DNA of 64,000 bases, taken from positions 64,001-128,000 of the IMG/VR virus record IMGVR_UViG_3300043395_002432; one strand, 5' to 3'. The translations under genes and the position numbers were made by a program. Under the pieces are notes generated by a model. That model had not been told where the DNA came from. It worked only from the letters and a program-made list of their open reading frames with translations, and did not search any database. Within the stretch, counting starts at the first letter, position 1. The number at the start of each line of letters is the position of its first letter. Of the stretch, positions 1,805 through 64,000 are shown in pieces. The stretch is from a virus.

Positions 1805-1873
1805 TTGATTCTCCTCGATGCTCCTGTGGGTAACTCAGGCACCAAGATCGAGCCAACGACGAAGTCGAATTCG

Positions 1874-4252
1874 TCAGCTCGTCGAGCTGCCCGCTCCCTG
1901 CAGCCCGACGCGAGCCACGATGAACTCAGCCGCCGCATTCGGACGGAACCGAACGTCAGCCGTCAACCGACCCTGCGCCACCTCCGCTGCCGGGTTGTTG
2001 CTGTCGTTGCAGATCACCGAGTAGCCCTCCGCAGCCGACGCCCCGTAGAACCAGCCCAGGTTCCGCAGCCGCTCCATGTACGAGGTGATCTCCAACGTGA
2101 TCTGCGAGCGCAGCGCAGGAGTGTTCGGCTCAAACACCTTCGGCAGCAGGATCTGCCGCATGTTCAGCTTCACCACCGCAAGCATGCGCGCCACATGGAT
2201 CATGCCGTAGTCCCCGTTCCGCTCCATCGTGTTCGCACCAAAGACCACAGGATCTTGGTACTGCGCCAGATACCGAATCACGTTGATCTGGTGCGACCGA
2301 AGCTGCCCAGCCTCCGCGTCCGAGACCTCATACGCAAGCTGCACCACCAAGGACAACCGCCCGTCCGCCACACCGGCAGGAGCCTTCATCGCACCACGCG
2401 CAGAATCCGTCCGCGAGATCACACCAGCCGCATGGAATACCGGAGGGAGCAGCCGAGAGCGATTCGTCGCCGGATCAATCACGTACTTCCAGGGCCAGTA
2501 CATATGGCCCTCAAGCGCCTCAGGGCGGTTCACCTGACGCTTGTACGCAATCGCTTGCGTCGGCGTATACCCCGAAGGCGGGCAGATCACCGCAAACCGA
2601 TCCGTGTTCTCCCGAGCGTGACAGTAGTCCAGCAACGCCTGATCCACCGCCTTCACCCCGGTGAAGTCAGGGAAGATCACCATCAGCACCTCATTCAACC
2701 GCTCCGTCGCGTAGATGCCCTTCCGATCCGCCTGGATCGCCGTCCCGATCACCTCCGCACTGGTGATCGCGCTCCCGTCGTCCCCACCAGAGAGCCGCAA
2801 CGTCCAGGGGCTGGAGGCGTCGTTCACGGGAGCAGCGAAGTAGACCGCGCTGATCGCCCCCCCGTCCTTCACCTCCGCCTCGAACGTCAACGAGAACTCC
2901 CCCGTCGTGTAGTCAATCGTCCCCGTGCCGTCGCCAGTGAACCCACCAAAGCCGTCGTCCGTCAACGTCATGGTGCTGTCGTCCGACTCCTTCAACGCCG
3001 TGAACACCAAGGAGCCAGAGTAGACCGCATTCGAGAGCGTCCCCGCAAACTCCAGCGTCGCCCCGTCTCCAGCCAACGCCGTCCCCGCGTCGCCTGCAGC
3101 ATCCTCCTCCACCGAGACCCCTGAAAGCTCCGAAGGAACCCCAGCGTGGATCTCCGTCACCGAGAAGTACTCAGAGCCGTTCGTGGCGTCATTCAGGACG
3201 TTCACGATGTAGTTCTCGCTGTCCGTGTTGTCGGTCAGCGACACCAAGAACGTCTCCGCCACCGCCCACGAGCCGTTCGCGTCCAACACCTCCACCACCA
3301 AGTTCCACCGCGTGAACGACGCCGAATCCGCATCCTCGTAGCCCTCCAACCCAGAGAGCTTGATCCGGCAGTCATTCCCATACGCACCAACGTGATCCAT
3401 CGTCAGAAGGAAGAGCTTCTTGCGGTACACCACAGAGACCACGTAGTCGTCCGCAGGCGCATTCGAGAACGTCACCGCAAGCGCCCCGGTCGTGTAGTTG
3501 ATCGACCCCGTCGCCCCACTCTGGAGCGCGCCTTCACCGTCGTCCGTCACCGTGATCTCAGGCCCGTAGTACCGATACGTCGCCGTGATCGCCGTCGACG
3601 CCCCAGGAAGATCGCCAGTCAGGTCAATGTAGATCTCACCCGTCGTCCGGTTCAAGGTGGTGTTCTCAGGCGTCCCGTCCCCCTCAACAGAGCCGTCCGC
3701 CGCAATCGTCTGAGACTTCGCAACGCCACCAGACGTCCACTCGATCAGGACGTCCCCCGTCGTCACCCCAGGGTGCGCCAAGGTGCCAGAGAACGCCGCA
3801 TCCCCACCAGCGTCCGAATCCAGAACCTCGTCTGTCACCAAGAGCGCACGCTGGTACACGATCTCAAGACTCCCAGGGAGGATCGGCACGCCAGCCAACG
3901 TCTTGCTCCCCGTCGTGTCCGAACCATCCCCCGTCATGAGCGTCTCCGTCACCTCCGTCGAGATGTACGCAGTCGCCGCCACAGCGTCGTCAGACGCCAC
4001 CCGCACCACCACCAAGCGCGAGCCACCGTTCTGGAAGAAGACATACGCAGCCAGCGGAGCCGTCAACGTGGTGCTGAAGGTGCCAAAGACCCGCTGAAAC
4101 TCCTCCCACGAAGTGATCACCGTAGGAGTATTCAGCGGCCCCTTCGGCGTCGCCCCAATCAAGGCCAACCCCGAAGTCGAAACCGCCGTCGAGACCGCCT
4201 GGGCCAACGGTACTGTCAAGGTGCGAACGCCCGGTGTGTTCGAAGCAGGCAT
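1874..4252 (-). CDS. contractile tail sheath protein (gp18-like)
   Basis: 792 aa; TPGV N-terminus, G.TPKGP.N.P..ITSWEEF.RVFG, FFQNGG..LVVVRV, KAPAG, VFEPNTPAL, Y.VICN.SNN and P..AAEFI C-terminus. Confidence 0.95.
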   Translation of the reverse strand: MPASNTPGVRTLTVPLAQAVSTAVSTSGLALIGATPKGPLNTPTVITSWEEFQRVFGTFSTTLTAPLAAYVFFQNGGSRLVVVRVASDDAVAATAYISTEVTETLMTGDGSDTTGSKTLAGVPILPGSLEIVYQRALLVTDEVLDSDAGGDAAFSGTLAHPGVTTGDVLIEWTSGGVAKSQTIAADGSVEGDGTPENTTLNRTTGEIYIDLTGDLPGASTAITATYRYYGPEITVTDDGEGALQSGATGSINYTTGALAVTFSNAPADDYVVSVVYRKKLFLLTMDHVGAYGNDCRIKLSGLEGYEDADSASFTRWNLVVEVLDANGSWAVAETFLVSLTDNTDSENYIVNVLNDATNGSEYFSVTEIHAGVPSELSGVSVEEDAAGDAGTALAGDGATLEFAGTLSNAVYSGSLVFTALKESDDSTMTLTDDGFGGFTGDGTGTIDYTTGEFSLTFEAEVKDGGAISAVYFAAPVNDASSPWTLRLSGGDDGSAITSAEVIGTAIQADRKGIYATERLNEVLMVIFPDFTGVKAVDQALLDYCHARENTDRFAVICPPSGYTPTQAIAYKRQVNRPEALEGHMYWPWKYVIDPATNRSRLLPPVFHAAGVISRTDSARGAMKAPAGVADGRLSLVVQLAYEVSDAEAGQLRSHQINVIRYLAQYQDPVVFGANTMERNGDYGMIHVARMLAVVKLNMRQILLPKVFEPNTPALRSQITLEITSYMERLRNLGWFYGASAAEGYSVICNDSNNPAAEVAQGRLTADVRFRPNAAAEFIVARVGLQGAGSSTS

Positions 4253-4435
4253 GCTCTTAGATCCTCACGCTAAGATCGCCTTTACCCGACGAGAGCCAAA
4301 AAGCAAACCCAGCCGACGAAGTCGAATTCGCTGCCGCAGGAAATTTTCGAAGAGCTTCGAATGCGGTCTGCACCAAGACCTCGAATGCGGCTGTGGGAGG
4401 GGTTGGGGAGGGTGAGGAGACCACCGCCGCTATAA

Positions 4436-4497
4436 GAGTGTCTTAGTTCGGGAAAACTTTGACCGCGATCAACGCCAGTTTTCAGATCGTACTTTCG
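4436..4497. repeat. 62-bp bipartite element, copy 1
   Basis: GAGTGTCTTAGTTCGGGAA, with TCGTACTTTCG starting 51 bp downstream. Confidence 0.9.
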
Positions 4498-4575
4498 GAC
4501 GACACGCACGGCGAGGAGAGCCGACCGACGCGAGCGGGAGGAGCGGCCCGCCGAAGCCCCGACAGCCCGAGTAAG

Positions 4576-4637
4576 GAGTGTCTTAGTTCGGGAAGACGAA
4601 ACCTGGGAACAAGGCCAGATTTCAGAGCCTACCGATT
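4576..4637. repeat. 62-bp bipartite element, copy 2 (second box degenerate)
   Basis: GAGTGTCTTAGTTCGGGAA exact; GCCAGATTTCAGAGCCTAC at the same offset as in the other copies. Confidence 0.85.
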
Positions 4638-5314
4638 CCCGAGGACGGAGGGGACGACACAGCTCGATGCACTAAGGTCGGAGAGATGTCGTACTCCCCA
4701 CGAATCGAGACCGAGATGCTCCTCTTCACCTCTCGCACGGAGAGGTCTGGGTACTGAAGCTCAATCGGCACCTCATCCACCGACCCGTCATAGGTGCGCT
4801 CCTCGTCCTCCGCGTCGTACACCTTGAGCGAGAAGCCATCGAGCAGGAATCGCTGGAGGAGGTACACCCACAGGAGCTTCGCCTCCCGACGAGCCGACGA
4901 ACCTCGGGCGACGACGTCGATCCGATACGAAAACTTCCTCGGGTGCGAGAGCGGCTGAACCTCCAAGAAGTCCGCCCCAGTCCGCGTGGTGCCGTCAGCG
5001 AATTCGACTTCGGTGAAGCTCGTCTGCGGCGCGGGCCGAATGTCCTGCACCGCTAAGCCCACGAAGCGCTGCTCATCTGGCTCGTCCGAAGTCAGCGTTA
5101 CCGCGACATGCGGGTAGAACTTCGCACCAAAGCTCTGCTCCCCCCCCGAGAAGTAGACAGGGACGTGGCCCTTGTACTCCGCCACACCGCGAACGCCCTC
5201 CACCACGAGCGCGTACTCCTCTCGCGCCTGATCGCCCTCACCAAGCAAAATCAGCACAGGCTCCATATGCTCAATGATGGCCCGATCAAAATGCTCGATC
5301 TCGATTCGACTCAT
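4622..5314 (-). CDS. putative tail completion/terminator protein
   Basis: 230 aa immediately upstream of sheath gene; call based on position only. Confidence 0.4.
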   Translation of the reverse strand: MSRIEIEHFDRAIIEHMEPVLILLGEGDQAREEYALVVEGVRGVAEYKGHVPVYFSGGEQSFGAKFYPHVAVTLTSDEPDEQRFVGLAVQDIRPAPQTSFTEVEFADGTTRTGADFLEVQPLSHPRKFSYRIDVVARGSSARREAKLLWVYLLQRFLLDGFSLKVYDAEDEERTYDGSVDEVPIELQYPDLSVREVKRSISVSIRGEYDISPTLVHRAVSSPPSSGIGRL

Positions 5315-5317
5315 GGC

Positions 5318-6103
5318 TCACCTCTTGCGAAATGCCTTTCGCTCGATCCCCTCCGTGAATCCCTCCATCGTCTCTGGGTTCTCAATGTCGCCCCGAGGAG
5401 GCTTCACAGATCGAATCTTGCTCCCGGTCAGGATCGCTTTTCGCTGCGCTTTCATCTCCTGCACGATGTACGCCTTCATCTCTTTCAGCGCACTTGACCA
5501 GACGTCGACCGCCTTCCCTCCGACGCCGTACTCCTCCCGAAGGGCTTCGAAGGCTAAGTCCGTTGGGGCGTCGACCAGCGCGTATCGCTGAGCAGGCATG
5601 AAGCGAATGGCCCGATCCAGCCTCTTGGGATCAAGCTCATCCGCCTCCGTGATCCAGCCCGCTTGCACCAAGAGGTGCGCTTGCTTCTTCAGCGCCTTCA
5701 CCGCCCCCTCGTACTCGTCAGGAGTGACCCGACGAAGGACGCCCTTCCCAGAGGCGAGGAGCGGGGCCGGGATCGCCTCAAGGGGAATTGGCCCAAGCAC
5801 AGAGAGATCCCGCACCAAGCCTGACGGCCCTTCCAAGAGCATTACCCACATGCCCCGATCCTGATCCGAGAGGACGCGCTTCTCCTCAGGCAGGACGACT
5901 GCATACCAGTCCCTCGTCCAGATCAGCTCAAGCCGGTCGTAGTCCAGGCTGGAGCGCGCTCCAGCAGCCTTCAGCCGCCGAACGAGCCGCCAGAGCGCAT
6001 TCTGCACAATGGAGGCGACCTGCTTCTGAACGAACGCCTCGTCTGCTTGCGCGAGCCGCTTCAGCACCTTCTTGGTGGCCCCAGATGGCTTCGCCCCGAT
6101 CAC
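5318..6103 (-). CDS. hypothetical protein (neck region)
   Basis: 261-aa ORF tightly packed with neighbours. Confidence 0.6.
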   Translation of the reverse strand: MIGAKPSGATKKVLKRLAQADEAFVQKQVASIVQNALWRLVRRLKAAGARSSLDYDRLELIWTRDWYAVVLPEEKRVLSDQDRGMWVMLLEGPSGLVRDLSVLGPIPLEAIPAPLLASGKGVLRRVTPDEYEGAVKALKKQAHLLVQAGWITEADELDPKRLDRAIRFMPAQRYALVDAPTDLAFEALREEYGVGGKAVDVWSSALKEMKAYIVQEMKAQRKAILTGSKIRSVKPPRGDIENPETMEGFTEGIERKAFRKR

Positions 6104-6384
6104 TTCTTGACCAAGAAGGTCTCAGGACGATCCAGCCGTTCGGCACCAAGCGACTGAATCCACTCAAGGTGCTTCGCACAGACCCCGAAGAGGGCGGACG
6201 AGGGGGCTTGCGCTTGGAGCATGGCCACAGGCGGATCGCCGCAGACGAAGCAATGCCGGTGGAGGTCAATGTCGCTCACCCGACATGGGAACGATCCCCC
6301 CCGGACGGGGCCACTACAGGGACGCCCGCAAGGCTTCCCTTCCTCTTGGTGCCAACGACAGGTCTGGCAGGCGAATGCCAACAT
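6100..6384 (-). CDS. Cys-rich putative Zn-binding protein
   Basis: Start MLAFACQTC overlaps upstream stop (TGATG); CxxC, CxxxC, CxxC and CxxH motifs. Confidence 0.6.
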   Translation of the reverse strand: MLAFACQTCRWHQEEGKPCGRPCSGPVRGGSFPCRVSDIDLHRHCFVCGDPPVAMLQAQAPSSALFGVCAKHLEWIQSLGAERLDRPETFLVKK

Positions 6385-7115
6385 CAGGCAACCTTCCCGA
6401 GCGCCTCTACCTGCTCCTTGGTGAAGAAGGTCTGCCCATGCTTCTTCGACCACATGGCCACAGCCTCTCCCAAGCCCCAGGAGCGAATGTCTCCCCACAG
6501 GATCGCCGCCTGATACGGCGTGAGCGACGGCTTGATCTTCAAGATCCGATCCGTCTCGGGGGCGTTGAGCGGACGAATGACCGGGTGAAGCTCGCTCTCC
6601 TGATCCTCAGGACTCCAACGGTCGTCCCCCTCCTCCAGCACGACGCGGGTAGAGATGTCCTCCAGCACGAAGAAGGTCTGGGCATCGTAGGAATACGCCG
6701 TCTCCGTGCGCTCCGTAGCCGTCCTCCGCATGCTCCCACGAACCTCTCGCTCCGTGGGCGAATTCGAATGCACCACACCCTCCGCAAGCACCTTGCCCAT
6801 GAGCGAGCAGACCACGAAGCGATCCCCACTCGCCAGAAGCTCTGGAGCGACCAGCCACGCCCTCGAAGGGTGCGACGCCGCCACCATCTCCAAGAGCGAG
6901 AGCAGCTCCGCGCTCACCTCCGCCTCCGAGACCTCCTTCACTGGCCACCGCTCGTCCCCATGCACCGTTCGCATGCTCTTGTAGACCGTCGTCACCAAGG
7001 CATAGAAGCCGTCCGGGTCAGACTTCTCCTTGTCCGGGTACTCCTGTTGAATGATCTCCTTCGACTGAATCCAATCCTTCTCTTCCTCAGGGGTACGCAC
7101 CAATGCTGAAGGCAT
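6384..7115 (-). CDS. hypothetical protein
   Basis: 243 aa, AGGAGG RBS. Confidence 0.65.
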   Translation of the reverse strand: MPSALVRTPEEEKDWIQSKEIIQQEYPDKEKSDPDGFYALVTTVYKSMRTVHGDERWPVKEVSEAEVSAELLSLLEMVAASHPSRAWLVAPELLASGDRFVVCSLMGKVLAEGVVHSNSPTEREVRGSMRRTATERTETAYSYDAQTFFVLEDISTRVVLEEGDDRWSPEDQESELHPVIRPLNAPETDRILKIKPSLTPYQAAILWGDIRSWGLGEAVAMWSKKHGQTFFTKEQVEALGKVA

Positions 7116-7128
7116 CGCTTTTCTCCTC

Positions 7129-7683
7129 CTACTTCTTTAGCCTGGGAATGGAATCTCGGGGAGCGATGAAGCCCTCCGAGGGAGTAGAGGGACGCAAAGG
7201 AATCGCCTCAGCGGGCTGAACCTCCTCCGTCAGTCCCGACCGAGATTTCAACGCAATCTTCCACTCCGTAAATCCGGGGCCATTCCGAACGATCCCGAAC
7301 TCGTCCACCTTGACGATCCGAAACCAACGCGGACGCTCCGACAGCGGATGCTGACAAATCACGTCCCCGATCTTTGGTGCTTTTGGCCCCTCCGTCAGCT
7401 CCGCCCAGAGCGAATACGGGATCGCAGCCTCAGCGTCGAACTCAGACTCCACCAAGCCCCCCTCGTCCGCGTCAACATTCTGACTCTCCGCCTCCTCGAA
7501 GAGAAAGCTCACGCTCAGCGCGAACGGAGCCATGTACGAAGGCTTCTCGCTCTCCCGATGAACAGGATTCCATTTTCCCGGCTTCAGGACGTAGTAATGC
7601 AGGAAGGTCTCGCCCTGCTCGTCGTCTCCAACAAAGCGTGCGTAGTCCCGGCTCACCTTCTGAAAGAAGTCCCGATCCCTCAT
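7129..7683 (-). CDS. putative head-closure/neck protein (gp14-like)
   Basis: Start MRDRDFF with GGAGG RBS; PKIGDVI...WFRI motif; located near gp13-like gene. Confidence 0.5.
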   Translation of the reverse strand: MRDRDFFQKVSRDYARFVGDDEQGETFLHYYVLKPGKWNPVHRESEKPSYMAPFALSVSFLFEEAESQNVDADEGGLVESEFDAEAAIPYSLWAELTEGPKAPKIGDVICQHPLSERPRWFRIVKVDEFGIVRNGPGFTEWKIALKSRSGLTEEVQPAEAIPLRPSTPSEGFIAPRDSIPRLKK

Positions 7684-7702
7684 ACGCCCTCCGTGAAGCC
7701 AC

Positions 7703-7740
7703 AGAAAAGGGGAGAACGAATTCGACTTCGTTCCCCCCCT
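7703..7740 (-). terminator. intrinsic terminator built around a palindrome copy
   Basis: Minus strand GGGGGGAACGAA-GTCGAA-TTCGTTCTCCCC-TTTTCT. Confidence 0.65.
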
Positions 7741-7761
7741 CTTCACCCCCCCCAGACCCGA

Positions 7762-8538
7762 TCAGCCCACCGAGAGAATGCGCTCAAGGTGCGAGGTCAG
7801 CGACACGCCGTTCTGGATCTCCTCCATGACCTCAGGGTCGGCCACGAAGCCGTGAGAAGCCAGGGCAGCCAGGGCAGCCTTCCCGGCCAGCTCCTTCGCC
7901 GCCGCCAGCGTGTCAGCCTCACCCTCGGCAGAGGGATCGTCGCCCTCGTCCGTGTAGATCGCCCAATACGCCCCACCCTCGTCATCGACGGCCAGCAAGG
8001 TCACCAGACCGTCCTCCGTCTCCGCCATCCACTCACCCTCGTCGCCCTCGATCCACGCCAGGGCGTCCACTGCCGACTGCTCGAGCATCGGGCGGTAGTA
8101 CATGTTCTCGAAGACCTGAAGGCTCTCGTTCTGGTTCGAAGCCTGCTTCCCTGCCCAGTCCATCGCGCCAGCCTTAGCCGCACCAGCGACCGGAGCGAAC
8201 TTGTTCCCCCGTGCCTCGGCAGAGCTGACGCCACCCCCTGAGCGAGACAGCACCTCGCCGTCGTAGCAGCGGACGTTGTCACCCTTCATGCGAGCAAGCC
8301 GACCGCAGACAGGGACGCCCTTCTGGATCGACAAGGTGCCACGCTCCGGGCGATACCGCACGGGAGCGGGCTTCTCGATCTTACGAAAGAGCGGCTTGCC
8401 GTTCTTCCCCTTCCCCACAACCACGTCCTTGGGAGAAGAGAAGTTGAAGGACACCGTCTTCGCCCGCCGCTGCGTGCTGAACTTCCCCTCCGCGTCATGG
8501 TGGGGATTCGGGTTGCCACGCTCTTCGATGTTCGCCAT
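7762..8538 (-). CDS. hypothetical protein, possibly internal head protein
   Basis: 258 aa; N-terminal NPHHDAEGKF motif; basic N-half and acidic C-half separated by QNES. Confidence 0.55.
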   Translation of the reverse strand: MANIEERGNPNPHHDAEGKFSTQRRAKTVSFNFSSPKDVVVGKGKNGKPLFRKIEKPAPVRYRPERGTLSIQKGVPVCGRLARMKGDNVRCYDGEVLSRSGGGVSSAEARGNKFAPVAGAAKAGAMDWAGKQASNQNESLQVFENMYYRPMLEQSAVDALAWIEGDEGEWMAETEDGLVTLLAVDDEGGAYWAIYTDEGDDPSAEGEADTLAAAKELAGKAALAALASHGFVADPEVMEEIQNGVSLTSHLERILSVG

Positions 8539-8604
8539 TTTGATCTCCTACTGAAGAAGCGATAGCGTATTGACGAGAATCGGGCAACGCGAATTCGAAT
8601 TCGT

Positions 8605-9351
8605 TCAGCCAATCACAAACAACACCCCAGGCGAGGCTGCAAGCGCCTCCTCCTGAAGGATCTGAAGCTCAGCCTCCGACTCCGACATGAGGTCGCCGCC
8701 GTCCATCGACGTCTTCGACCCACCCATTGGAACCTCACTGTACTTGCGCCGAACTTGCCCCAACGTGCGCTTACACGTCGCAAGCAAGTAGCGCCGAAAC
8801 CACTGAAGCTCTTGGCTGTCCAGATTCTCGACGTCCACGACGTACTTCACGAACTCTACGAAAGCGGGGCCACTCAAGGTGTCAGGTCGTACCGTCAGCA
8901 CCTTGCTGCGTGGCTCGTACTGCCATGTGGGATCGTTCCCAAATTGCCGCTCTAATCCGCGATTGGCAAGGTACTGAAGAAGATGCGTTGTCCGCGTGAG
9001 GTTGCCAGGGTTCCGAATGAATCCCGTCAAGTCCTCCATAAAGTAGCTGCGGTACTCAGAAGAGACATTCGCTATATCAGGAAGGATTACGTCGACGACC
9101 TCTCGGACGTTCGACGGAAGCCTGTAGTCCGATTGGCCCGCCACCAAGGTGAGCGGGAGACGGCACCGCTCACCTACGGTGGAGGAGAGCCAGAGCTTGG
9201 TGTTCTCGATCCCGTCCGCAATGTCGTCGAGCGTTAGCTCAATGCCGACGTTGTTCCCACCAAGCTGGCGAATGACACGATAGCCCTCCGCCTGCTCCCG
9301 CTCGGTGAGCGCACGAAAGAGAAGCTCATGCTTGGTGGTGTCGCGGGCCAT
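8605..9351 (-). CDS. neck protein (gp13-like)
   Basis: LATCKRTLGQVRRKY..VPMGG...MDG.DL..E...E.Q.L motif resembling the gp13 C-terminus; RQLG..V.IELT N-terminus. Confidence 0.75.
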   Translation of the reverse strand: MARDTTKHELLFRALTEREQAEGYRVIRQLGGNNVGIELTLDDIADGIENTKLWLSSTVGERCRLPLTLVAGQSDYRLPSNVREVVDVILPDIANVSSEYRSYFMEDLTGFIRNPGNLTRTTHLLQYLANRGLERQFGNDPTWQYEPRSKVLTVRPDTLSGPAFVEFVKYVVDVENLDSQELQWFRRYLLATCKRTLGQVRRKYSEVPMGGSKTSMDGGDLMSESEAELQILQEEALAASPGVLFVIG

Positions 9352-9354
9352 TGT

Positions 9355-9813
9355 TCAGCGGACGAGGGAGCGGCGAGGACGAGGGGCAGGCTCGGGCTTG
9401 ACCTCAGTCACCTCGGGAGCGACCTCGGGAACCTCAGCGATCTCGCGGACTTCGGGCTTCGGCTCGGAAGGCTCCTCGACCTTCGGCTCGGGCTGCACCT
9501 CGGGCGGGGCAGACTGCTCGGGCTGCGGATCGGGCTGCTCCTCGAGCTTGACCGGCTCCACCAAGGAGAGGTCGACCAGCGACGGGGTGATCTCGACCGA
9601 CGCCGTCTCCGCCGTCTCGACACGAACCTCCACTACAGGAGCGACGGGAGCGGGAAGCTCCACCAAGTGGGTCTTCAGCCACATGCGCCATTCGACCGAC
9701 CCCTCGAAGACCTCGCCAGCCGCAAGGTGCCTGGACTCAGTGGGGCTGACCTCCAGACGGATCTTCTTGACCCCGGAAGGAACTGCCGAATGCTTCAGAC
9801 GATACAAGGGCAT
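9355..9813 (-). CDS. Pro/Glu-rich protein
   Basis: 152 aa with low-complexity PE-rich C-terminus, downstream of capsid gene. Confidence 0.6.
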   Translation of the reverse strand: MPLYRLKHSAVPSGVKKIRLEVSPTESRHLAAGEVFEGSVEWRMWLKTHLVELPAPVAPVVEVRVETAETASVEITPSLVDLSLVEPVKLEEQPDPQPEQSAPPEVQPEPKVEEPSEPKPEVREIAEVPEVAPEVTEVKPEPAPRPRRSLVR

Positions 9814-9871
9814 CTCTTATCTCCTCTTCCAGAGGTAACTCGACTATAAAGACCGGTCGAGCGCGGTGGGG

Positions 9872-9910
9872 AAAAAGGAAAAGGCGGAACGCATTCGAAT
9901 GCGTCCCGCC
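9872..9910 (-). terminator. intrinsic terminator after major capsid gene (stem includes a palindrome copy)
   Basis: Minus strand GGCGGGACGCATTCGAATGCGTTCCGCC-TTTTCCTTTTT. Confidence 0.8.
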
Positions 9911-9938
9911 CCCGCTCACCTCACGGTGAGGTCACCGA

Positions 9939-11396
9939 TCAGGCCAGGGTCGACAAGCCAGTGATCGAGAGCTTCCCGTAGAACTCGGGACGATGCACCT
10001 TGAGCGCGTTCCGGGTGATCACGCCGAACTTCTTCGTCATGGTCACGGGATCGACCTGCGTCACGACGCGGATCGGCATGTAGGGCGCGAAGATCGTGCC
10101 AGCCTCCTCCCAGGTCGAGCCACGGTAGCCGAGCAGAATGCGCTTGGTGGACGAACCCTCGTCCATGAACAGATCCTCGTAGACGACGTACTTGTTGTTG
10201 TACGTCCCCCACCGCTTGATCTGCGGGTTCTTCGACGCCACCGGCTCGACCCCGTCCGCCATCCCCGCGCCCTCGCGCTTCAGCGTCGCACGGTAGTTCT
10301 CATGCCCAGAGAGCTGGTCGATCAGGGCGATGATCTCCGGCCCAACCACAATGTAGTTGGGCGTGAAGCCGCGAGTGCGCTGCCGCACGCGAGCCGAGAT
10401 CTGATCCAGCTTCTTCAGGATGTTCAGGATGTTGTCCAGCTCCGTCACCGCCGTGGCAGAGTAGGCCAGCGTGTCCGTGGTCGAAGCCGCCGAGAGCTGG
10501 GCGTCGATGATCTGGCGATCCAGCTCGGTGGCGATCTGGATCGTCATCTCGTCGACGATCTCCTGCTCCGCGTCCGCACCAGTGTGCGAGCGGATCTCGT
10601 CCATCGCCTCGAAGGTGAGGCTGGCGCGCAGGCGGCGAGTCTGGGCCGTCATGGTCACAGCCTCGAACGCCAGGGTCGTCTCACCAACAGCGGACGAACC
10701 CTCCATGTTCTGGTAGTAGCTCGCCACGATGGCGTCGCCGTTGGTGGGCGCGGTGTTGAAGGTGACCCGGAAGGCACCCGTGCTGTAGTTGATCGTGCCG
10801 GTGCCGCCGTCGTCACCCACCAAGAGGCCAGAGCCGTCGTCGGTGAAGACCTCGGTGCCGTCCGTGATCACCACAGAGACGCCCGTGGTCGAGTTGTACG
10901 GACGAACCGGGAGCTGGAGCAGGCTGCCCGAGAAGATCTTGGTGGCCCCGTTACCCGTGCCAGCCGCCTCCTCCTCGACGTACTCGCTCGAGTAGTGGCG
11001 GGCGAAGGTCTGGTTCAGCGAGGTCGCCGCCGCGATGTTGCCACGAGCCGAGCCGGTCTTGTACGACCGAATGAAGACCTGAGCGGTCGGCTTGTTGATC
11101 GGTGACACCAAAGCCAGATCGAACGCGATCAGCTGACCCATCGTCTTGCGGATCAGCGGCAGCGTCATGGCCTGCCCGTTGCTGATCACCGAGGTCGTGG
11201 TGTCCTCGTTCAGCGAGTCGCCAGGGTTGTTCCTGAAGTTCTCCATCATGACGGCGAGCGCCTCGTCGCGCTTGGCATTCCAGCCCGCACGCCGATCCCC
11301 ACGCTCGTCCTTGAAGGGGCGATCCAGCGAACGAAGCTCGCCGTTCTTGCCCTCGATCAGGCTCTTCCACTCTTCCACCAAGTTGTTCCGCGCCAT
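9939..11396 (-). CDS. major capsid protein (gp23-like)
   Basis: 485 aa; LPLIRK..LIAFDL..V.P..PT..VF, TAQTRRLRA..T.E...DAEQE, IATELDRQII, LLGYRG...EAG.IFAPYMP, GVITR. Confidence 0.95.
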   Translation of the reverse strand: MARNNLVEEWKSLIEGKNGELRSLDRPFKDERGDRRAGWNAKRDEALAVMMENFRNNPGDSLNEDTTTSVISNGQAMTLPLIRKTMGQLIAFDLALVSPINKPTAQVFIRSYKTGSARGNIAAATSLNQTFARHYSSEYVEEEAAGTGNGATKIFSGSLLQLPVRPYNSTTGVSVVITDGTEVFTDDGSGLLVGDDGGTGTINYSTGAFRVTFNTAPTNGDAIVASYYQNMEGSSAVGETTLAFEAVTMTAQTRRLRASLTFEAMDEIRSHTGADAEQEIVDEMTIQIATELDRQIIDAQLSAASTTDTLAYSATAVTELDNILNILKKLDQISARVRQRTRGFTPNYIVVGPEIIALIDQLSGHENYRATLKREGAGMADGVEPVASKNPQIKRWGTYNNKYVVYEDLFMDEGSSTKRILLGYRGSTWEEAGTIFAPYMPIRVVTQVDPVTMTKKFGVITRNALKVHRPEFYGKLSITGLSTLA

Positions 11397-11504
11397 TGTT
11401 CGTTCTCCTCTGTTCGCTGTAGAATCGGTCTGCTAAAAACGTGCAAGCCTCAGAAGCGAGCTTTTTCAGTCGGGAACGAATTCGAATTCGACGCACCAAC
11501 GAGA

Positions 11505-11531
11505 TGAGGAGAGGGGATCTCCCTCTCCTCA
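11505..11531. other. GC-rich hairpin between protease and capsid genes
   Basis: TGAGGAGAGGG-GATCT-CCCTCTCCTCA; no clear U-tract. Confidence 0.5.
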
Positions 11532-11556
11532 GCGTACTCTGGCTGCTCTTGGTGCC

Positions 11557-13860: not shown

Positions 13861-13902
13861 TCGTTTCCTCTCTCTTGAGCTTAGCTGCTCGAACGTGATC
13901 TG

Positions 13903-13950
13903 CCAAAAGAAGGTAGGGCTGGCGACGAATTCGACTTCGCCACCAGCCCC
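13903..13950 (-). terminator. hairpin/terminator containing a palindrome copy
   Basis: Minus strand GGGCTGGTGGCGAA-GTCGAA-TTCGTCGCCAGCCC-TACCTTCTTTT. Confidence 0.45.
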
Positions 13951-13991
13951 GCCTTCCCTTCCCTTTCCCCCCTTCCCTTGCTCTTCCCTTG

Positions 13992-14171
13992 TCACCGCTT
14001 CTTGCGCCGGAAGGGCAGCCTCCAGAGGAGGCTCCGTCGTCTCTTGGATTCTGGGCTTTCTCTCCGATCCGAGATCCGTTCCTGATCGGGCCTTACCTGC
14101 GCTCTGAGATCCAGAGGGGTGTACCCGATCTTCCGCCGCACCTCAGACCGAGAGAACTCGCTCAGTTTCCC
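13992..14171 (-). CDS. basic C-terminal extension reachable by -1 frameshift (or independent 49-aa ORF from GTG 14141)
   Basis: The -1 frame is open from GGGAAAC (14165-14171) to TGA at 13992: GKLSEFSRSEVRRKIGYTPLDLRAQ...WRLPFRRKKR. Confidence 0.5.
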   Translation of the reverse strand, partial: GKLSEFSRSEVRRKIGYTPLDLRAQVRPDQERISDRRESPESKRRRSLLWRLPFRRKKR

Positions 14172-15145: not shown

Positions 15146-15155
15146 CTCAACTCCC

Positions 15156-15896: not shown

Positions 15897-15923
15897 GTTC
15901 TCCTCCAACGAATTCGAATTCGT

Positions 15924-19249: not shown

Positions 19250-19258
19250 GCCTGCTCC

Positions 19259-49692: not shown

Positions 49693-49707
49693 GTGAACCT
49701 CACCCCC

Positions 49708-49740
49708 AGCATAGGATCAGGAGAGGGGTGAGGTGTCAAG
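49708..49740 (-). promoter_or_regulatory. promoter with single TGAC box, palindrome immediately upstream
   Basis: TTGACA-N20-TATGCT. Confidence 0.55.
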
Positions 49741-49761
49741 AACCAGCGAATTCGAATTCGC

Positions 49762-52896: not shown

Positions 52897-52947
52897 CGAT
52901 GCCTCCCAAGGAACCCTTAGCGCCCACAGCGAACGAATTCGAATTCG

Positions 52948-53266: not shown

Positions 53267-54979
53267 TCACGAATCGCGCCGAGACGCACGCGGATCGCTC
53301 ACCAAGAGCCGCGCAATGAAGAAGTTCCCATCCTTGTCCACACGCGCCCCAGGAAGACGCCCATTCGCACCAGCAGCAAAGACCGCAGGATCAAGCGAAC
53401 CCCCACGCCCAACCACAGAGAGAAACCCTGAACCCACCAACGTCAACACAGATCGAACCTCCTCAGAAGCGTAGAACGAATCCAACGCCGAACGATCCAC
53501 AAGCGGCACCTCAAGCCCAAGCAAGATCTGAAAACCACGCTTCGACGTCTCAACCACATTCATTCGACCACTGAACAACGGATGCCCCTTCACCACCTCT
53601 CGAAACCCAGCCAAGACACGCGCCTCCTCCTCACGCCCCTCACGCGACAAAGGCGAGTAGGAACGACGCTCAAGCTGGTCAAGGTCGAACAATACATACT
53701 CCCCAGCAACCGCCTCAAACCCTGAAGGACTCAACGTCGACCACGAACCATCCCCAAGCGTGACCTCAACCTCCTCCCGATGCGTCATCTCATGTATCGA
53801 AATGTACTGATCCGGGTAGACCTGCTTTGGTGCCTCATGCGCGGCACGAGCCTCAAGACGAGCCGCCATGCTCAGATACCGATCACTCGTCTCATTCGCC
53901 GCAAACGAACGCGTCGAACGGGCCGATACAACCATCTGATCCATCACGTCCACACGCGAAGCATACCGACGACGCGCATACCGACCACCACGAGAAGACC
54001 CCTCATACACCGTCGTCCGAACCGCACCAAAACGCCTCACACGCGAACGCCAAGCCTCAATCGCCCCCTCACGCCGAATCAATCCAGACGCCCGATACCG
54101 ACCAGCACGAACCTTCCGAGCCTCGTACCAAGAAACCACAGAAGCGTCGCCAGTAGAAGGAAAGTCGAACGGTAGCTCATCCTCCATCATGACGCTTCGC
54201 TCGGGAAGATCCTCGAACGGCTCCTCTGAAGGAAGCGAAGAAGGAAGCGAGGAACGCGACGACGGAAGCACCTCCACAGGAGCGCGTGAAGGATCGAGCA
54301 GACGCACCAAGAGCTGCCCCCCCTCCTCCTTCCAGCCACCTATGGCACGACCACACGCGAAGCAGAACACCGCACGAGAACCAACCTCCAGCAACGTAGC
54401 CGAAGGCGTCCGCTCCATGCCCCCCTTGTGGATCGGACACCGAACCATGATCCCACGACCACGACGACCAGCCACGTCCTCAGGAGCAAGCACGCGCCAC
54501 TCAGAGAACCGAGAGGAACGAAGCACGGAAAGATCCAAGCCGTACCGAGTAGCACCAACACGAAGCTCCTCTCGAACCCCCCGAAGTACCTCAACCCCAA
54601 GATCCGAGAGCTGATACAACGAGCCACGATACCCAAGCAGCCGCGCATTCGAATTCGTTTCCACCAAGACCTCAGGCCCAAGCACTACGACAAGGCGCTC
54701 CAAGATCTCCCGAGCCAGCCCCTCAGAGATCCGATCTGAGCCGTCAGCCAATGCCAGAGGAAAACGACCGCTCGCGTAGTAGCGGCGACACCGATCAATG
54801 GGCTTCCCAGCCTCATGCAAGCGACAGAAGTCTGAGACCACATGGAGGAGGGCTGCAGCAACAAGGGGGCGGCGAGAAGGTCGAAGCTCGACGAAGGAGA
54901 GAAGCTCCAGAACGCAACGTCGAACGAATCGAGCGGTTCGCGTTTTTTTCGCTTGTTGAGGTGGTCTGCTAACGCTCAT
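53267..54979 (-). CDS. Zn-finger plus AEP primase-polymerase (Rep-like)
   Basis: Central CPIH...ERTPS...CFAC (CHC2-type); C-terminal LFDLD, ETSKRGFQ and D.AV......RLPG AEP motifs; N-terminal wHTH-like region. Confidence 0.7.
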   Translation of the reverse strand: MSVSRPPQQAKKTRTARFVRRCVLELLSFVELRPSRRPLVAAALLHVVSDFCRLHEAGKPIDRCRRYYASGRFPLALADGSDRISEGLAREILERLVVVLGPEVLVETNSNARLLGYRGSLYQLSDLGVEVLRGVREELRVGATRYGLDLSVLRSSRFSEWRVLAPEDVAGRRGRGIMVRCPIHKGGMERTPSATLLEVGSRAVFCFACGRAIGGWKEEGGQLLVRLLDPSRAPVEVLPSSRSSLPSSLPSEEPFEDLPERSVMMEDELPFDFPSTGDASVVSWYEARKVRAGRYRASGLIRREGAIEAWRSRVRRFGAVRTTVYEGSSRGGRYARRRYASRVDVMDQMVVSARSTRSFAANETSDRYLSMAARLEARAAHEAPKQVYPDQYISIHEMTHREEVEVTLGDGSWSTLSPSGFEAVAGEYVLFDLDQLERRSYSPLSREGREEEARVLAGFREVVKGHPLFSGRMNVVETSKRGFQILLGLEVPLVDRSALDSFYASEEVRSVLTLVGSGFLSVVGRGGSLDPAVFAAGANGRLPGARVDKDGNFFIARLLVSDPRASRRDS

Positions 54980-55232: not shown

Positions 55233-55249
55233 AGCGAAGTCGAATTCGC

Positions 55250-56071
55250 TCAGAACGCGGAGATCGAAGGGATCGCCTCCCGCGACCGGGCCAACGTGAT
55301 CGAGTAGCTCTGACCAGAATGCTCCCGAGCCAGCTCCGCGTACTTCCGAGCCAGCTCATGGGTATTGGTGCTGTTCGAGATATGCCCCACCACCAAGTGC
55401 CGAAGCGAGGGCGTATTCCCAACGAGAAGCCTGTAAGCCTGCTCATTGCTCAGATGCCCGTAGTCCCCGCGAATTCGCGTTCGCACCGACGACGGGTACT
55501 CTGAATTCAGGAGCATCTCAGGGTCGTGATTGAATTCCATCACCAAGATCTCGACCTCTTTCAGCCGCTCCCGAATCACCGAGGTCGCCCGACCCAGATC
55601 CGTACAGACCATTGCCGTCGAATGGCTGTTGGACACCAAGAAGCACACAGGCTCCCGAGTGTCATGCGGAACAGGGATCGCCTCAATCTTTAGGTGCTTG
55701 ACGAAGAAGACCGAACGCTCGATCACCTCTTGGCACCGAATCTTGCCCCGCTCCAGATTCTTCGACCCCTCCCACGTCCCCCGCGTAGCCCACACGTCAG
55801 GCATGCAGCCCCGGCCAGCCAACGCCCGCTGCACAACGCCAACGCCACCAACATGGTCGATATGCTCATGCGTAATGAGGATCGAATCAATCGGGTGGCG
55901 CTCTAAACCCCCAGCAGCCTCTAAGCCTTGCTGAAGCCTCATGTTCGACCCACCGCAGTCGATCAGAACGCCAGCATGATCGTCCCCTACCCAGGTGCAA
56001 TTGCCTTGCGACCCCGAGGTGAGGGAAAGAAGCCGAAGAGGCTTTGCCAGCCGAACCCCCCTCAGGCGCAT
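55250..56071 (-). CDS. MBL-fold metallo-hydrolase (YycJ/WalJ-like exonuclease)
   Basis: SGSQGN, LIDCG, THEHIDH, VPHD..EP, TDLG, EFNHD..ML...YP...RI...GHLSN, GHIS..N. Confidence 0.88.
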   Translation of the reverse strand: MRLRGVRLAKPLRLLSLTSGSQGNCTWVGDDHAGVLIDCGGSNMRLQQGLEAAGGLERHPIDSILITHEHIDHVGGVGVVQRALAGRGCMPDVWATRGTWEGSKNLERGKIRCQEVIERSVFFVKHLKIEAIPVPHDTREPVCFLVSNSHSTAMVCTDLGRATSVIRERLKEVEILVMEFNHDPEMLLNSEYPSSVRTRIRGDYGHLSNEQAYRLLVGNTPSLRHLVVGHISNSTNTHELARKYAELAREHSGQSYSITLARSREAIPSISAF

Positions 56072-56249: not shown

Positions 56250-56270
56250 GAAGACCTCCGTCGCCCCCTG

Positions 56271-56314
56271 AAGCTAACCCCAACCCCTCAGAGATCTTGT
56301 CAAGAACGTGTCAG
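56271..56314 (-). promoter_or_regulatory. tandem-TGAC promoter abutting a palindrome copy
   Basis: CTGACA-N5-TTGACA-N21-TAGCTT. Confidence 0.6.
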
Positions 56315-56335
56315 CGAAGTCGAATTCGTTCCTGC

Positions 56336-57679: not shown

Positions 57680-57765
57680 CGCTCACCTCAAGGTGGCGAT
57701 AACACCCACGTTACAGAAGTGACAAGGGACACCACTTGGTGTCCCCGTCGAAGTCGAATTCGTCC

Positions 57766-59099: not shown

Positions 59100-59384
59100 T
59101 CAAGCGTATCTGCTCTCGGGCCAAATGTCATTGGTGCTGACCTTGACATCCTCACCCGTCACCGTGGCAAGGACACCACCCCTCCGAAGAAGGGAAGCGA
59201 TCCGCTTCGCGTCCGCATTCGAATTCGTTTGCAAGACGACCTCCCCAGGGGCGTCCACCCAGGTGAACCTGATCCCCGAGACCTCGATCTCAGCACCAAA
59301 TCTGCCGAACTCGAACCCGAGGACGGCACCAATGGCCTTGTAGGCGTCAGCGGGCGTATGCAAGACCTTCAGCAGTGCGCGCAT
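59100..59384 (-). CDS. hypothetical protein
   Basis: 94 aa, GGAGG RBS. Confidence 0.55.
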   Translation of the reverse strand: MRALLKVLHTPADAYKAIGAVLGFEFGRFGAEIEVSGIRFTWVDAPGEVVLQTNSNADAKRIASLLRRGGVLATVTGEDVKVSTNDIWPESRYA

Positions 59385-61298: not shown

Positions 61299-61360
61299 GG
61301 CTCTCTCCCTCTTGGTGGCTTTAGTCGAGGATGTCGGCGCGGGCAACGAATTCGAATTCG

Positions 61361-62816: not shown

Positions 62817-62839
62817 TGTCTACTCCTTCTCTGGGAGCC

Positions 62840-63064
62840 TTAGACTGGAGAAGGCTTTGCAGCAACCCTTCGAAAGAAGTCCGTCAATTCACGCATGCGA
62901 TGAATCCCTTTCAGCTCTGTGAGTGAGGGGATCTTGCATTCCGCGTGTGCCAAGATGCCAGAAGCACCAAGGATCATGTACTCAAGCCCGCTTTGGTGCA
63001 GGTAGAGCTTCATGGGGACGACGGCGGCGTCCTCAGAGTGAAAGCGCCACGCCTCAAGGCTCAC
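62840..63064 (-). CDS. hypothetical protein
   Basis: 74 aa, GTGA overlap. Confidence 0.5.
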   Translation of the reverse strand: MSLEAWRFHSEDAAVVPMKLYLHQSGLEYMILGASGILAHAECKIPSLTELKGIHRMRELTDFFRRVAAKPSPV

Positions 63065-63330
63065 TTCAACGCCTCTTGCATGACTTGCTCGACGTTCGGA
63101 AAGATCCCCAGGCAGCCCGGAGTGGAAGCGAGGATCTTGGCGAGCGTATCAGAGAACGTGTAGCGTGCGCTTAGCTCCGGGCTAAGCACCAGAATCCGAG
63201 AGCGCAGGGGGTCGTAGCGCACGACGCCCCCAGCACGAACCTTCTCGCGGATCTTCTCAACGACGGCAGCCGAATCACGCATGTCTTTTCCCTCCGCAGC
63301 TAAAGTAGCGTGTCCGACCGCCCCTTGCAT
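63061..63330 (-). CDS. hypothetical protein
   Basis: 89 aa; start uncertain. Confidence 0.5.
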   Translation of the reverse strand: MQGAVGHATLAAEGKDMRDSAAVVEKIREKVRAGGVVRYDPLRSRILVLSPELSARYTFSDTLAKILASTPGCLGIFPNVEQVMQEALK

Positions 63331-64000
63331 CAGAGACGAGGATCGAGGCTTCCGTCGTCAAGCGAGTGCAGCCGCAGACACGCCTCGGCGCAAGCGTACC
63401 GATCCCCCTCGTACCAAGCCTTGAGCGCCTTCTCGGCCATCCGGGTCTCGTTCGACGCCTGAGCCATCTTGCGGCCCACGGAGCGGTTCTGAAGCCGCCC
63501 CAGGTAGTCAGGGTACTCGGGGCCGTAGATCAGCCTGAGGTACTCAGGACGCCGCACCTTGATCGCTGGCGCAATCGAATTCGTTTCCAGCCCCTGCATG
63601 ACCTTGAGATCCGCCTCCGCCGTAGAGCGACGCTGCCTCATCGAGGGCATGGGCTTGACGACGAAGCCCTCCAGATCGGGGGCAGCGGAGAGGAGGAAAC
63701 GCCCCTCAACGAAGCTGCGGGCGACCAATTTCCGCCCAAAGGGTTGATCCAGCCACACCGTGTAGTCGGAGATCCCTCGAATCGCTCCTTCGTCTCCCAA
63801 GAGGCACGCAAGCTCCTCTCGGAAGGTGCGATCAGGATCTCCGATCATGAGGCTCTTTCGGGCCTTATCGAGCGCCGGAGTGCGGACGTTCCACACCCTG
63901 TAGTGAACCTCCGAGGAAGCCCCGAAGATGTTGAGCTGGTTGCGGTAGGCTACAAGGTGCTTCAAGCGCCGCTCCTCGTAGAGATCGGGCCGATGCTTCT
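63330..64000 (-). CDS. Pnkp-like RNA ligase C-terminal domain, truncated at window end
   Basis: EGFVVKP, PAIKVR..EYLRLIYGPEY, RL..R....K...A..E and terminal DPRL match the bacterial Pnkp C-terminus; frame open to 64000. Confidence 0.85.
   Translation of the reverse strand, partial: KHRPDLYEERRLKHLVAYRNQLNIFGASSEVHYRVWNVRTPALDKARKSLMIGDPDRTFREELACLLGDEGAIRGISDYTVWLDQPFGRKLVARSFVEGRFLLSAAPDLEGFVVKPMPSMRQRRSTAEADLKVMQGLETNSIAPAIKVRRPEYLRLIYGPEYPDYLGRLQNRSVGRKMAQASNETRMAEKALKAWYEGDRYACAEACLRLHSLDDGSLDPRL

Follow-up and report, generated by a model that had tools for sequence, protein, structure and literature searches.

The Cluster O mycobacteriophages, Corndog and its relatives, carry a 17-bp dyad repeat, TGTTCGG-N3-CCGAACA, in more than 30 copies (34 in Corndog), which lie both between and within genes, show no meaningful orientation and mostly have no promoter near them (PMC4351075). 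The authors of that 2015 study predicted binding by a dimeric protein in a process other than transcription initiation, left the function unassigned, and noted that few if any of the repeats take part in rearrangements (PMC4351075). Within the portion of that paper available to us, there is no account of re-spelling among relatives, of even-spacing statistics or of an association with a methylase. The same paper states that the stoperators of Cluster A phages such as L5 and Bxb1 are asymmetric and oriented with transcription (PMC4351075). The elements of T4-type phages called PeSLs, as far as the available part of their description goes, combine a stem-loop with a sigma-70-like promoter and a ribosome site, and are intergenic elements of hyperplastic regions with loose stems (PMC4122927). 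Searches of the literature on dispersed phage palindromes and on iterated palindromes brought up nothing closer than these Cluster O, PeSL and stoperator-type cases to the element described here. This is a 14-bp palindrome repeated at even intervals along a 64,000-base stretch of viral DNA (hereafter the window), which is bases 64001-128000 of IMG/VR record IMGVR_UViG_3300043395_002432, a contig of 139,496 bases with 61% G+C. The exact 14-mer was found in no paper, supplements being outside the search. On balance, we lean toward reading the sites as duplex-DNA docking points for a symmetric dimeric protein, kept in place by selection and read by a protein that the phage probably encodes itself, with a methylase module as the candidate.

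The palindrome is present as originally predicted, and its excess is stronger than was then stated. The degenerate 14-mer CGMAKTCGAMTKCG occurs 35 times in the window, compared with a mean of 0.02 in 100 dinucleotide shuffles (largest count 1; 0/100 reach 35), and 69 times in the whole contig. Sites with no more than two mismatches from CGAATTCGAATTCG number 43 in the window and 91 in the contig, the latter dividing into 20, 46 and 25 at zero, one and two mismatches, where a third-order Markov model expects 0.015, 0.21 and 1.9. Chance or base composition as the cause of the copy number is rejected by the shuffles and the Markov model alike (91 observed vs about 2 expected), and the earlier tally of 35 consensus copies plus 8 near-matches in the window agrees with our recount of 35 strict sites and 43 within two mismatches. 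The symmetric substitutions at positions 3/12 and 5/10 described in the original prediction recur in the recount: changes concentrate at 3/12 (A to C, T to G) and at 5/10 (T to G or A, A to C or T), while the central TCGA and the outer CG are nearly invariant across sites. The dyad reaches 16-18 bp via its flanks, with a purine at -1 in 62 of 69 copies and a pyrimidine at +14 in 63 of 69. The motif can alternatively be parsed as C + GAATTC + GAATTC + G, and GAATTC outside the palindromes is undepleted (53 copies vs 18.6 expected from base composition).

The spacing of the sites is as distinctive as their number. Across the contig, the 91 sites have a mean gap of 1508 bp (minimum 235, maximum 3714) and a coefficient of variation (CV) of gap length of 0.489, compared with 0.985 +/- 0.10 under uniform placement and 0.964 +/- 0.099 under a boundary-keeping null that sets 45 sites at random gene ends and 46 in coding DNA; under either null, 0/5000 simulations are as even as the observed arrangement. 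Gaps shorter than 400 bp number two, where about 19-21 are expected. With the two-mismatch sites included, the CV drops from 0.64 to 0.49 and the maximum gap shrinks from 6766 to 3714 bp, and weaker copies therefore occupy holes between strong ones. Placement at gene boundaries is rejected by the boundary-keeping null as the source of the even spacing, and since both nulls fail, the array (hereafter the lattice) is real and not a by-product of gene length. The claim of a selected, genome-wide, evenly spaced lattice is thus upheld by the counts, the gap CV and the dyad symmetry, and the exponential gap distribution that would have spoken against it is not what we find (CV 0.489 vs 0.96-0.99 under the nulls).

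Sites fall between genes far more often than the share of such DNA would give, with 45 of 91 intergenic against 12% non-coding DNA and the remaining 46 coding, although these assignments come from crude open reading frame (ORF) and codon scoring and may err individually. Perfect copies are intergenic in 15 of 20 cases. About 21 intergenic sites begin 0-9 nt past the preceding gene's stop codon, which often donates the purine flank of the site (TGA directly followed by CG); the 11 stop-adjacent copies named in the original prediction all lie 0-3 nt past the stop of a minus-strand ORF in the new calls. The 46 coding sites are spread over all three frames. On their 3' side, intergenic sites are followed within 8-21 nt by a ribosome site and a start, or else by a spacer of 46-80 nt, sometimes with TTGAC-type boxes at variable distance, and a few sites cap G+C-rich stems followed by T-runs (for example, past the capsid gene), a perfect stem extension of at least 4 bp being seen in 2 of 91. 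By eye, promoter-like boxes resembling TGACAcgTTC and then TTGACA, with a TAtCCT-like box about 17 nt on, lie between several sites and the next gene, such as the box pairs at window 43800-43852, 49690-49746 and 56250-56314 and others (coding strand, downstream of sites). The sites of the window are listed below by window coordinate, without strand; mismatches are counted from CGAATTCGAATTCG, and the contigs of runs X3 and X4 and the relative L034 are taken up further on.

1860-1873: site CGAAGTCGAATTCG, one mismatch, intergenic, 0 nt past the tail-sheath gene stop
4317-4330: site, one mismatch, intergenic, 64 nt upstream of the sheath start
4999-5012: site, one mismatch, coding
6759-6772: near-site CGAATTCGAATGCA, two mismatches, coding
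7717-7730: site, one mismatch, intergenic, within a G-rich stem and T-run; a run X3 contig diverges at 7715
8590-8603: perfect site, intergenic, 1 nt past a stop; a run X3 contig diverges at 8589
9890-9903: site CGCATTCGAATGCG, intergenic, 35 nt past the major-capsid stop, at the top of a terminator-like hairpin
11477-11490: perfect site, intergenic, between the prohead protease and major capsid genes
12778-12791: near-site CGAGATCGAATTCG, two mismatches, within the protease gene
13926-13939: site, one mismatch, intergenic, upstream of the protease gene; a run X4 contig diverges at 13923
15909-15922: perfect site, 1 nt past the portal stop and 12 nt ahead of the next start
18120-18133: near-site CGAGGTCGAATTCG, two mismatches, coding; a run X4 contig diverges at 18124
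19190-19203: site CGAAGTCGACTTCG, 5' end of the ParB_N gene
21628-21641: perfect site, 3 nt past the stop of a 761-aa gene; L034 has a site of another spelling at the same junction
23082-23095: near-site CGAATTCGAAGTCG, one mismatch, within the 761-aa gene
24853-24866: site, one mismatch, coding (gene end)
28424-28437: site, one mismatch, intergenic, 79 nt upstream of the 27331-28344 gene
29656-29669: site CGCATTCGAATGCG, intergenic, 21 nt ahead of the next start
30675-30688: perfect site, intergenic, 16 nt ahead of the start of a resolvase-like gene
32155-32168: site, one mismatch, opening codons of the UvsX/RecA-like gene
32642-32655: near-site GGAATTCGAATTCG, one mismatch, coding
33429-33442: site, one mismatch, intergenic, 9 nt past a helicase stop
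35155-35168: site CGCATTCGAATGCG, intergenic, upstream of the helicase
36396-36409: perfect site, 1 nt past the stop of a DnaG-type primase
37134-37147: site, one mismatch, within the DnaG-type primase gene
39815-39828: site CGAAGTCGACTTCG, 5' part of a 235-aa N6_N4 methylase gene
40817-40830: site, one mismatch, coding
42193-42206: site, one mismatch, coding
43853-43866: site, one mismatch, 0 nt past a stop, followed by TTGAC-type promoter-like boxes
45239-45252: perfect site, coding
46326-46339: site, one mismatch, coding
48173-48186: site, one mismatch, coding
49270-49283: near-site CGAATTCGACTCCG, two mismatches, coding
49747-49760: perfect site, 1 nt past the ribonucleotide reductase stop
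52934-52947: perfect site, 0 nt past a stop
54644-54657: site, one mismatch, within the Zn-ribbon/AEP primase-like gene (reads T-N-S-N-A)
55235-55248: site, one mismatch, 1 nt past a stop, just upstream of the primase-like gene
55470-55483: near-site CGAATTCGCGTTCG, two mismatches, coding; with 55235, the closest pair of the contig (235 bp)
56315-56328: site, one mismatch, intergenic, 7 nt past a stop
57749-57762: site, one mismatch, intergenic, 3 nt past a stop, then a separate hairpin
59214-59227: site, one mismatch, coding
61347-61360: perfect site, 0 nt past a stop
63570-63583: near-site CGCAATCGAATTCG, two mismatches, coding

The two arms of the palindrome vary independently of each other. 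Watson-Crick complementarity between the arms is kept at positions 5/10 in only 44 of 91 sites and at 3/12 in 71 of 91, and none of the common variants forms a G-U pair. Half-site pairings are near independence (CGAAGTC with CGAATTC 30 vs 22.4 expected; CGAAGTC twice 4 vs 4.4), and a related record with a differently spelled lattice, G004, shows the same independent-halves pattern at position 3/12 (A/A 11, mixed 21 and C/C 9 of 41). Asymmetric variants have no preferred orientation on the coding strand (17 vs 13 and 5 vs 5). The lack of arm compensation together with the lack of orientation thus argues for a symmetric dimer reading duplex DNA, and against terminators, RNA processing sites, promoters and single-strand initiation hairpins. 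The independent halves fit palindromes that are duplex-DNA sites for a symmetric dimer and not RNA hairpins, in line with the dimeric reader that the original prediction had expected from the symmetry.

The alternative at the level of RNA, in which the sites would be PeSL-like promoter-terminator cassettes whose hairpins end or stabilize transcripts and act as recombination points, could account for the roughly 21 sites just past stops, the few capped stems with T-runs and the TTGAC-type boxes that follow several sites. It could also account for part of what is seen among other strains, whose assembled contigs from four runs we aligned to window 4000-23999. Four loose contig ends (at 7715, 8589, 13923 and 18124), among 18 listed out of 73, lie within 4 nt of a site, where chance would give about 0.25, and each has unlike sequence on its low-coordinate side; three of the four divergence sites are also gene boundaries, which confounds the comparison. 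This hints that some mosaic junctions fall at palindromes, as at PeSLs, while near-identical strain contigs of run X3 span several sites unchanged. However, half of the sites (46 of 91) are coding, there is neither compensatory change nor strand preference of asymmetric variants, extended stems are confined to 2 of 91, the distance from site to -35-like box varies from 2 to 25 nt, and the evenness exceeds that of the gene-boundary null. PeSLs, in the part of the source available, are moreover intergenic, in hyperplastic regions and loosely conserved in their stems (PMC4122927). We therefore regard the RNA-level reading as very improbable. Two further observations belong to the strain and RNA data. 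In run X4, a contig of low depth connects 13955 with 23863 and so lacks 9907 bases, among them the portal, ParB_N and methylase genes; the left end is 16 nt from site 13926, and as one side has only 21 letters, the junction may be spurious. The RNA run covers 8 of 30 bins and is uninformative on the sites.

The contig, which CheckV estimates as 68% complete, comes from a distant T4-like myovirus, judging from large genes for a gp23-type major capsid protein, a gp20-type portal, an S77 prohead protease and a tail sheath, along with a UvsX/RecA-like recombinase, a class II ribonucleotide reductase and helicases. By our ORF and codon scoring, 155 of 159 genes are on the minus strand, or 173 of 180 once the calls were refined. 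The runs that contain the contig sequence are freshwater and riverine metagenomes, and in an annotated phage collection there was no megablast match to the contig and capsid identity of at most about 25%. This gene set bears on the stoperator-like silencing suggested in the original prediction, in which an immunity repressor would bind the sites and halt transcription across a prophage. There are indeed many dispersed sites, some of them near promoter-like boxes, but they are symmetric and unoriented to transcription, the gene set is that of a lytic phage, and there is no match to tyrosine integrase (PF00589) or HTH_3 (PF01381) in the 68%-complete contig. Such silencing is disfavored, and we consider it extremely unlikely.

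Relatives in metagenomes and IMG/VR were found with a capsid alignment; an IMG/VR scan with the capsid as a single protein found none. They reveal five further spellings within the T4-like clade, or six counting that of the T4-like contig itself. The spelling of what we call family 2, CGMACACGTGTKCG (as a 16-mer, G-CGMACACGTGTKCG-C), occurs in 5 copies in L034 and, within one mismatch, in 32, 17, 5, 6 and 9 copies in G004, G005, G006, G007 and G008, respectively. Family 2 is a strict 16-mer, with G at -1 in 75 of 76 sites and C at +14 in 73 of 76, and its G flank is donated by a TAG stop codon; spacing in G004 has a CV of 0.71 (P 0.01). The 28.8-kb G009, a sister in the capsid tree, has 13 copies of GAAATYRATTTC with a CV of 0.31 (P 0.00025). 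In the 92-kb G010, the spelling is GGACCGTACGGTCC, its 10-bp core occurring 24 times, 23 of them matching G[GA]ACCGTACGGT[CT]C, with a CV of 0.55-0.59 (P 0.002 at 0.55). G011 has 6 copies of CGAACTnnAGTTCG, and the 63-kb G029 has the 12-bp core of CGAACGCGCGTTCG 9 times. A CGAA-type outer half-site is common to four of the six spellings. No comparable lattice was found in the whole records G013, G023 and G028. A separate observation concerns the 126-kb G012, scored as lattice-less and without an N6_N4 methylase, where a weak inverted repeat, CGAGC-N4-GCTCG, occurs 9 times vs 0.37 expected. With six spellings in one clade, and two of them in a sister pair, nature has provided specificity swaps that make the question of the reader testable.

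Some positions are kept across these changes of spelling. Two junctions, those past the 761-aa gene and ahead of the protease gene, have a site in the T4-like contig and in L034 alike, in different spellings, and the post-capsid terminator carries one in both the contig and G009. Within family 2, where aligned DNA averages 71-75% identity to G004, we made 40 site-versus-genome comparisons, of which 8 pair the near-identical G005 and G006; in the other 32, the orthologous site is kept 24 times. The kept sites change only at tolerated positions while their 40-bp flanks are 42-88% identical; as a control, at least 12 identities are reached by only 36% of ordinary 14-column stretches of these alignments. 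Six of the eight losses are a gap over the motif. Since these are gaps and not substitutions, and since contigs of other strains diverge at sites, one could suppose a selfish or enzyme-made insertion, that is, a nuclease or recombinase footprint or a target-spreading motif of no benefit to the phage. Yet sites are kept at orthologous positions across about 70% nucleotide identity, they are evenly spaced with very few close pairs, and at least one coding copy, in the primase-like gene of a phage described next, arose by substitution without an indel (N-E-F-E-F-V aligned with E-P-F-E-D-L). A selfish origin thus seems improbable to us.

The phage in question is G001 (L110), a contig of 27.1 kb and the one contig with several copies returned by an IMG/VR scan for the exact 16-mer. 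It has 13 sites within one mismatch (spacing CV 0.58, P 0.045) and the same grammar as the T4-like contig, namely stop, motif, ribosome site and start, with one site in a terminator-like stem. It is siphovirus-like, with a phrog_2 terminase, a portal fused to a head-morphogenesis domain and a weak phrog_10 head protein, and has only two proteins in common with the T4-like contig: a minor tail protein at 87-88% identity and a 570-aa protein at 41-43% identity. In the DNA of the former, a 760-nt segment is 91% identical between contig 136943-137690, outside the window, and G001 18541-19296, which suggests a recent exchange and probably a common host.

An identical spelling and grammar in a phage that shares just two proteins is the main argument for a different reader, a host-encoded dimeric protein (nucleoid-associated, partition-type or regulatory) on whose spelling phages converge. 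The 91%-identical segment suggests that G001 and the contig probably share a host, and G001 is without every phage-encoded candidate bar the primase-like protein. Set against this are the prokaryote genomes themselves, the very different spellings of the sister pair formed by the T4-like contig and G009, and the fact that the lattice follows a phage gene family, PF01555. A 16-mer scan of one genome per prokaryote species gave at least 120 stretches, each single-site and in scattered taxa; the 80 of them examined lie in ordinary coding contexts with no phage kinship, one having two sites within one mismatch. A bacterial genome of comparable density, which the original prediction had named as a reason to doubt a phage-specific signal, does not appear among the at least 120 matches listed, and a host-wide motif is thus unsupported among them, the phage's own host genome being outside the scan. 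We judge a host-encoded reader to be unlikely, though worth keeping in view.

The 570-aa protein is the second thing that the two identically spelled phages share.

53267-54979, minus strand: Zn-ribbon/AEP primase-like protein, 570 aa, common to the contig and G001

It is the sole DNA-metabolism protein common to both, and its language-model neighbors, which serve as a lead only, are in the Zn_ribbon_DnaG, RepB_primase and Prim-Pol families; Pfam finds no family in it. The densest site cluster sits 5' of its gene in both phages. In G001, repeated units at 3280-3748, just upstream of the gene, contain three perfect palindromes at intervals of 209 and 246 bp, and in the contig the closest pair (55235, 55470) is likewise just upstream, with one more site inside. 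A fourth palindrome of G001 is within its gene and a fifth directly past it; the G001 cluster could be an origin or an autoregulatory region. One might thus take the sites as recognition or priming points (single-strand initiation, origin-like) for this protein, at Okazaki-like spacing. As a common reader, however, it is weakened by G004, a 161-kb record of 87% completeness that has a lattice and no homolog even by profile at E up to 1. The BLAST table shows no homolog in other relatives either, the IMG/VR scan yielding only G001, and as the half-sites lack covariation, a single-stranded DNA hairpin is not the conserved thing. The primase explanation accordingly has little probability in our estimation.

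The gene family that follows the lattices is that of the N6_N4 methyltransferases (PF01555), which has a member in the window close to one of the two binders proposed in the original prediction.

18326-19249, minus strand: ParB_N-domain protein, 307 aa, two genes downstream of the methylase (ParB_N E 9e-12)
19612-21453, minus strand: N6_N4 DNA methyltransferase gene, longest ORF 613 aa, of the family co-occurring with lattices
27331-28344, minus strand: helical protein, 337 aa, no family, the other binder of the original prediction

PF01555 exceeds its cut-off in 5 of 24 related records (G009, G010, G004, G005 and G029), all of them lattice-bearing, or in 5 of 7 lattice-bearing vs 0 of 17 lattice-less records (Fisher 0.0005). 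The lattice-less, PF01555-negative records include ones of 174, 133 (complete), 126, 109, 104, 92 and 89 kb, and the lattice-bearing records without the family are G011, a 20% fragment, and G001. In the capsid tree, for which a quick tree method was used, G010, with both lattice and methylase, is nested at 97% support among G012, G013 and G016, which have neither. G009 has the methylase and ParB_N pair adjacent, and the methylases of G004 and G005 carry a fused ParB_N domain. Matches of the 19612-21453 methylase to Protein Data Bank (PDB) sequences yield no specificity. The whole contig, as a separate observation, encodes three N6_N4 methylases and a D12 adenine methylase.

Neither of the two binders originally proposed tracks the lattice. 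The 307-aa ParB_N protein, in which ParB_N is the only family detected and no helix-turn-helix family was found, gave only five homologs in a homolog search. Among the related records, G009 and G010 encode a homolog, yet so do G012 and G013, which have no lattice, and G004, G005 and G001 have none. The 27331-28344 protein has homologs in G004, G005 and G010, again also in G012 and G013, and none in G001. It has no Pfam or PHROG family, a large protein search gives one homolog, its profile has one insignificant match in the PDB, and its AlphaFold model (mean pLDDT 46) is too poor for use; hints of DUF3102 and of a partition-protein N-terminal domain were rejected at an atlas score below 0.9 or a TM below 0.5.

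Several points weigh against the methylase module and, in part, against a phage-encoded reader altogether. G001 has the same spelling without an N6_N4 methylase, a ParB_N protein or a homolog of the 27331-28344 protein, so that the reader there would be another one or would be borrowed from another phage or the host. Outside G009, the methylases of the lattice lineages are alike only over a catalytic core of about 70 residues, and may not be orthologs. The methylase could also be a consequence of the lattice, protecting restriction-like palindrome cores rather than reading them. Counted by independent lineage, the 24 records come down to only about 4-5. Most of the lattice-less records were scored from a 21-kb locus, 3-4 exact copies being the threshold; the negatives include G015, which is part of a G029-like phage, and G012 has its weak candidate motif (9 vs 0.37 expected). 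Finally, as the contig is 68% complete, the reader may be encoded in the missing part.

With these points weighed, docking of a dimeric protein on duplex DNA is still the reading we prefer. From the patterns above, we infer that a protein binds the palindromes, that the phage encodes this reader and that the purpose is marking. Selection would keep about one site per 1.5 kb along the whole phage chromosome, and sites would be placed where they cost least, directly against stops, at the apex of terminator hairpins and in parts of genes that tolerate them. Most likely the phage itself encodes the reader, which would co-evolve with its sites, and because of this co-evolution, sister lineages would come to have re-spelled lattices at the same junctions. 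That the N6/N4 methylase module, fused or adjacent to a ParB-fold domain, is this reader is a tentative proposal, to which we give rather less than an even chance. The palindromes would then be recognition or loading points of the module, and the genome would be marked or protected at regular intervals; such genome-wide marking or protection from evenly spaced points is the most likely role among those we considered, though in itself a doubtful one. More speculatively still, and with a low probability as a whole, the lattice could be the cis half of a portable marking system, where a ParB-fold-coupled methyltransferase loads at about 90 lineage-specific palindromes and marks or shields the chromosome, specificity and sites are re-spelled together at lineage splits, and, by adopting the spelling, unrelated phages or satellites of that host gain a share in the protection.

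Some features of the contig stand beside this argument. Outside the window, at contig 10621 and 12007, palindromes lie between apparent tRNA genes of a large tRNA cluster, as read by eye. The whole contig also encodes an RNA-repair pair (a PNKP ligase domain and a Hen1 region), ThyX, a radical-SAM protein and a bacterial-type beta clamp. A second repeated word, the heptamer CACCAAG/CTTGGTG, has 246 + 167 = 413 copies in 139.5 kb vs about 18 expected from base composition, but 0 copies in the 27.1-kb G001, and it is rare in G004 (15 + 15). We set it aside as part of the palindrome system since the palindrome-sharing G001 has none, and its absence there and rarity in G004 make it a separate, phage-specific signal.

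Among described systems, the lattice is closest to the Cluster O repeats. In both, one short dyad sequence occurs at least 30 times genome-wide (here 91 in 139.5 kb), and sites lie between and within genes (45 and 46 here) and are unoriented, the distance to promoter-like boxes being variable here. In both, a ParB-like domain protein and a beta clamp are encoded, as far as the accessible part of the Cluster O paper describes its gene content (PMC4351075). They differ in sequence and half-site arrangement, and in setting, Mycobacterium siphoviruses as against a freshwater T4-like myovirus; here, in addition, some strain contigs diverge at sites. Because the sequence differs and the capsid, portal and sheath are T4-like, we regard the lattice as an analog of the Cluster O repeats and not as a member.

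The other comparisons are more distant. Stoperators belong to temperate phages with an immunity repressor; like them, the lattice comprises dozens of short putative protein-binding sites, many in short intergenic gaps, but its sites have neither asymmetry nor orientation, and the 68%-complete contig gave no match to an integrase or repressor family. With PeSLs, it has in common a T4-type phage, an element between a gene end and the next promoter or ribosome site, and an association with exchange points, whereas here a strict palindrome of 14-18 bp, half of its copies coding, runs evenly spaced across core genes with no hairpin covariation, and TTGAC-type boxes follow some of the sites and not others, at distances that vary. 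The sites parS, read by ParB, and NBS, read by Noc, are 16-bp palindromes recognized by ParB-family dimers, and Noc reads dozens of dispersed sites. The lattice resembles them in palindromes of 14-18 bp with a central CG and in a phage that encodes ParB_N-fold proteins, and differs in that no ParB-type helix-turn-helix was detected in the 307-aa ParB_N protein, which does not track the lattice. HIP1 of cyanobacteria is an 8-mer palindrome found over the whole host chromosome, over-represented in coding and non-coding DNA, for which a link to DNA methyltransferases has been proposed; the lattice, too, is an over-represented palindrome of coding and non-coding DNA, but consists of 14-18-mers seen only in phage genomes among the matches listed.

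Beyond the Cluster O case, the lattice offers six spellings in one clade and a phage of no relation with the identical one; it also speaks against RNA hairpins and for selection on even spacing, and it points to a candidate partner family, the N6/N4 methylases with ParB-fold domains. According to a 2025 survey, phages frequently encode ParB-CTPase folds fused to N6_N4 methyltransferases; it assigns these fusions no role, and the part of its text available contains 0 mentions of palindromes (PMC12704722). If the methylase link is true, the lattice would give these common ParB-fold/methylase fusions a function, and would represent a new way of labeling or protecting phage DNA.

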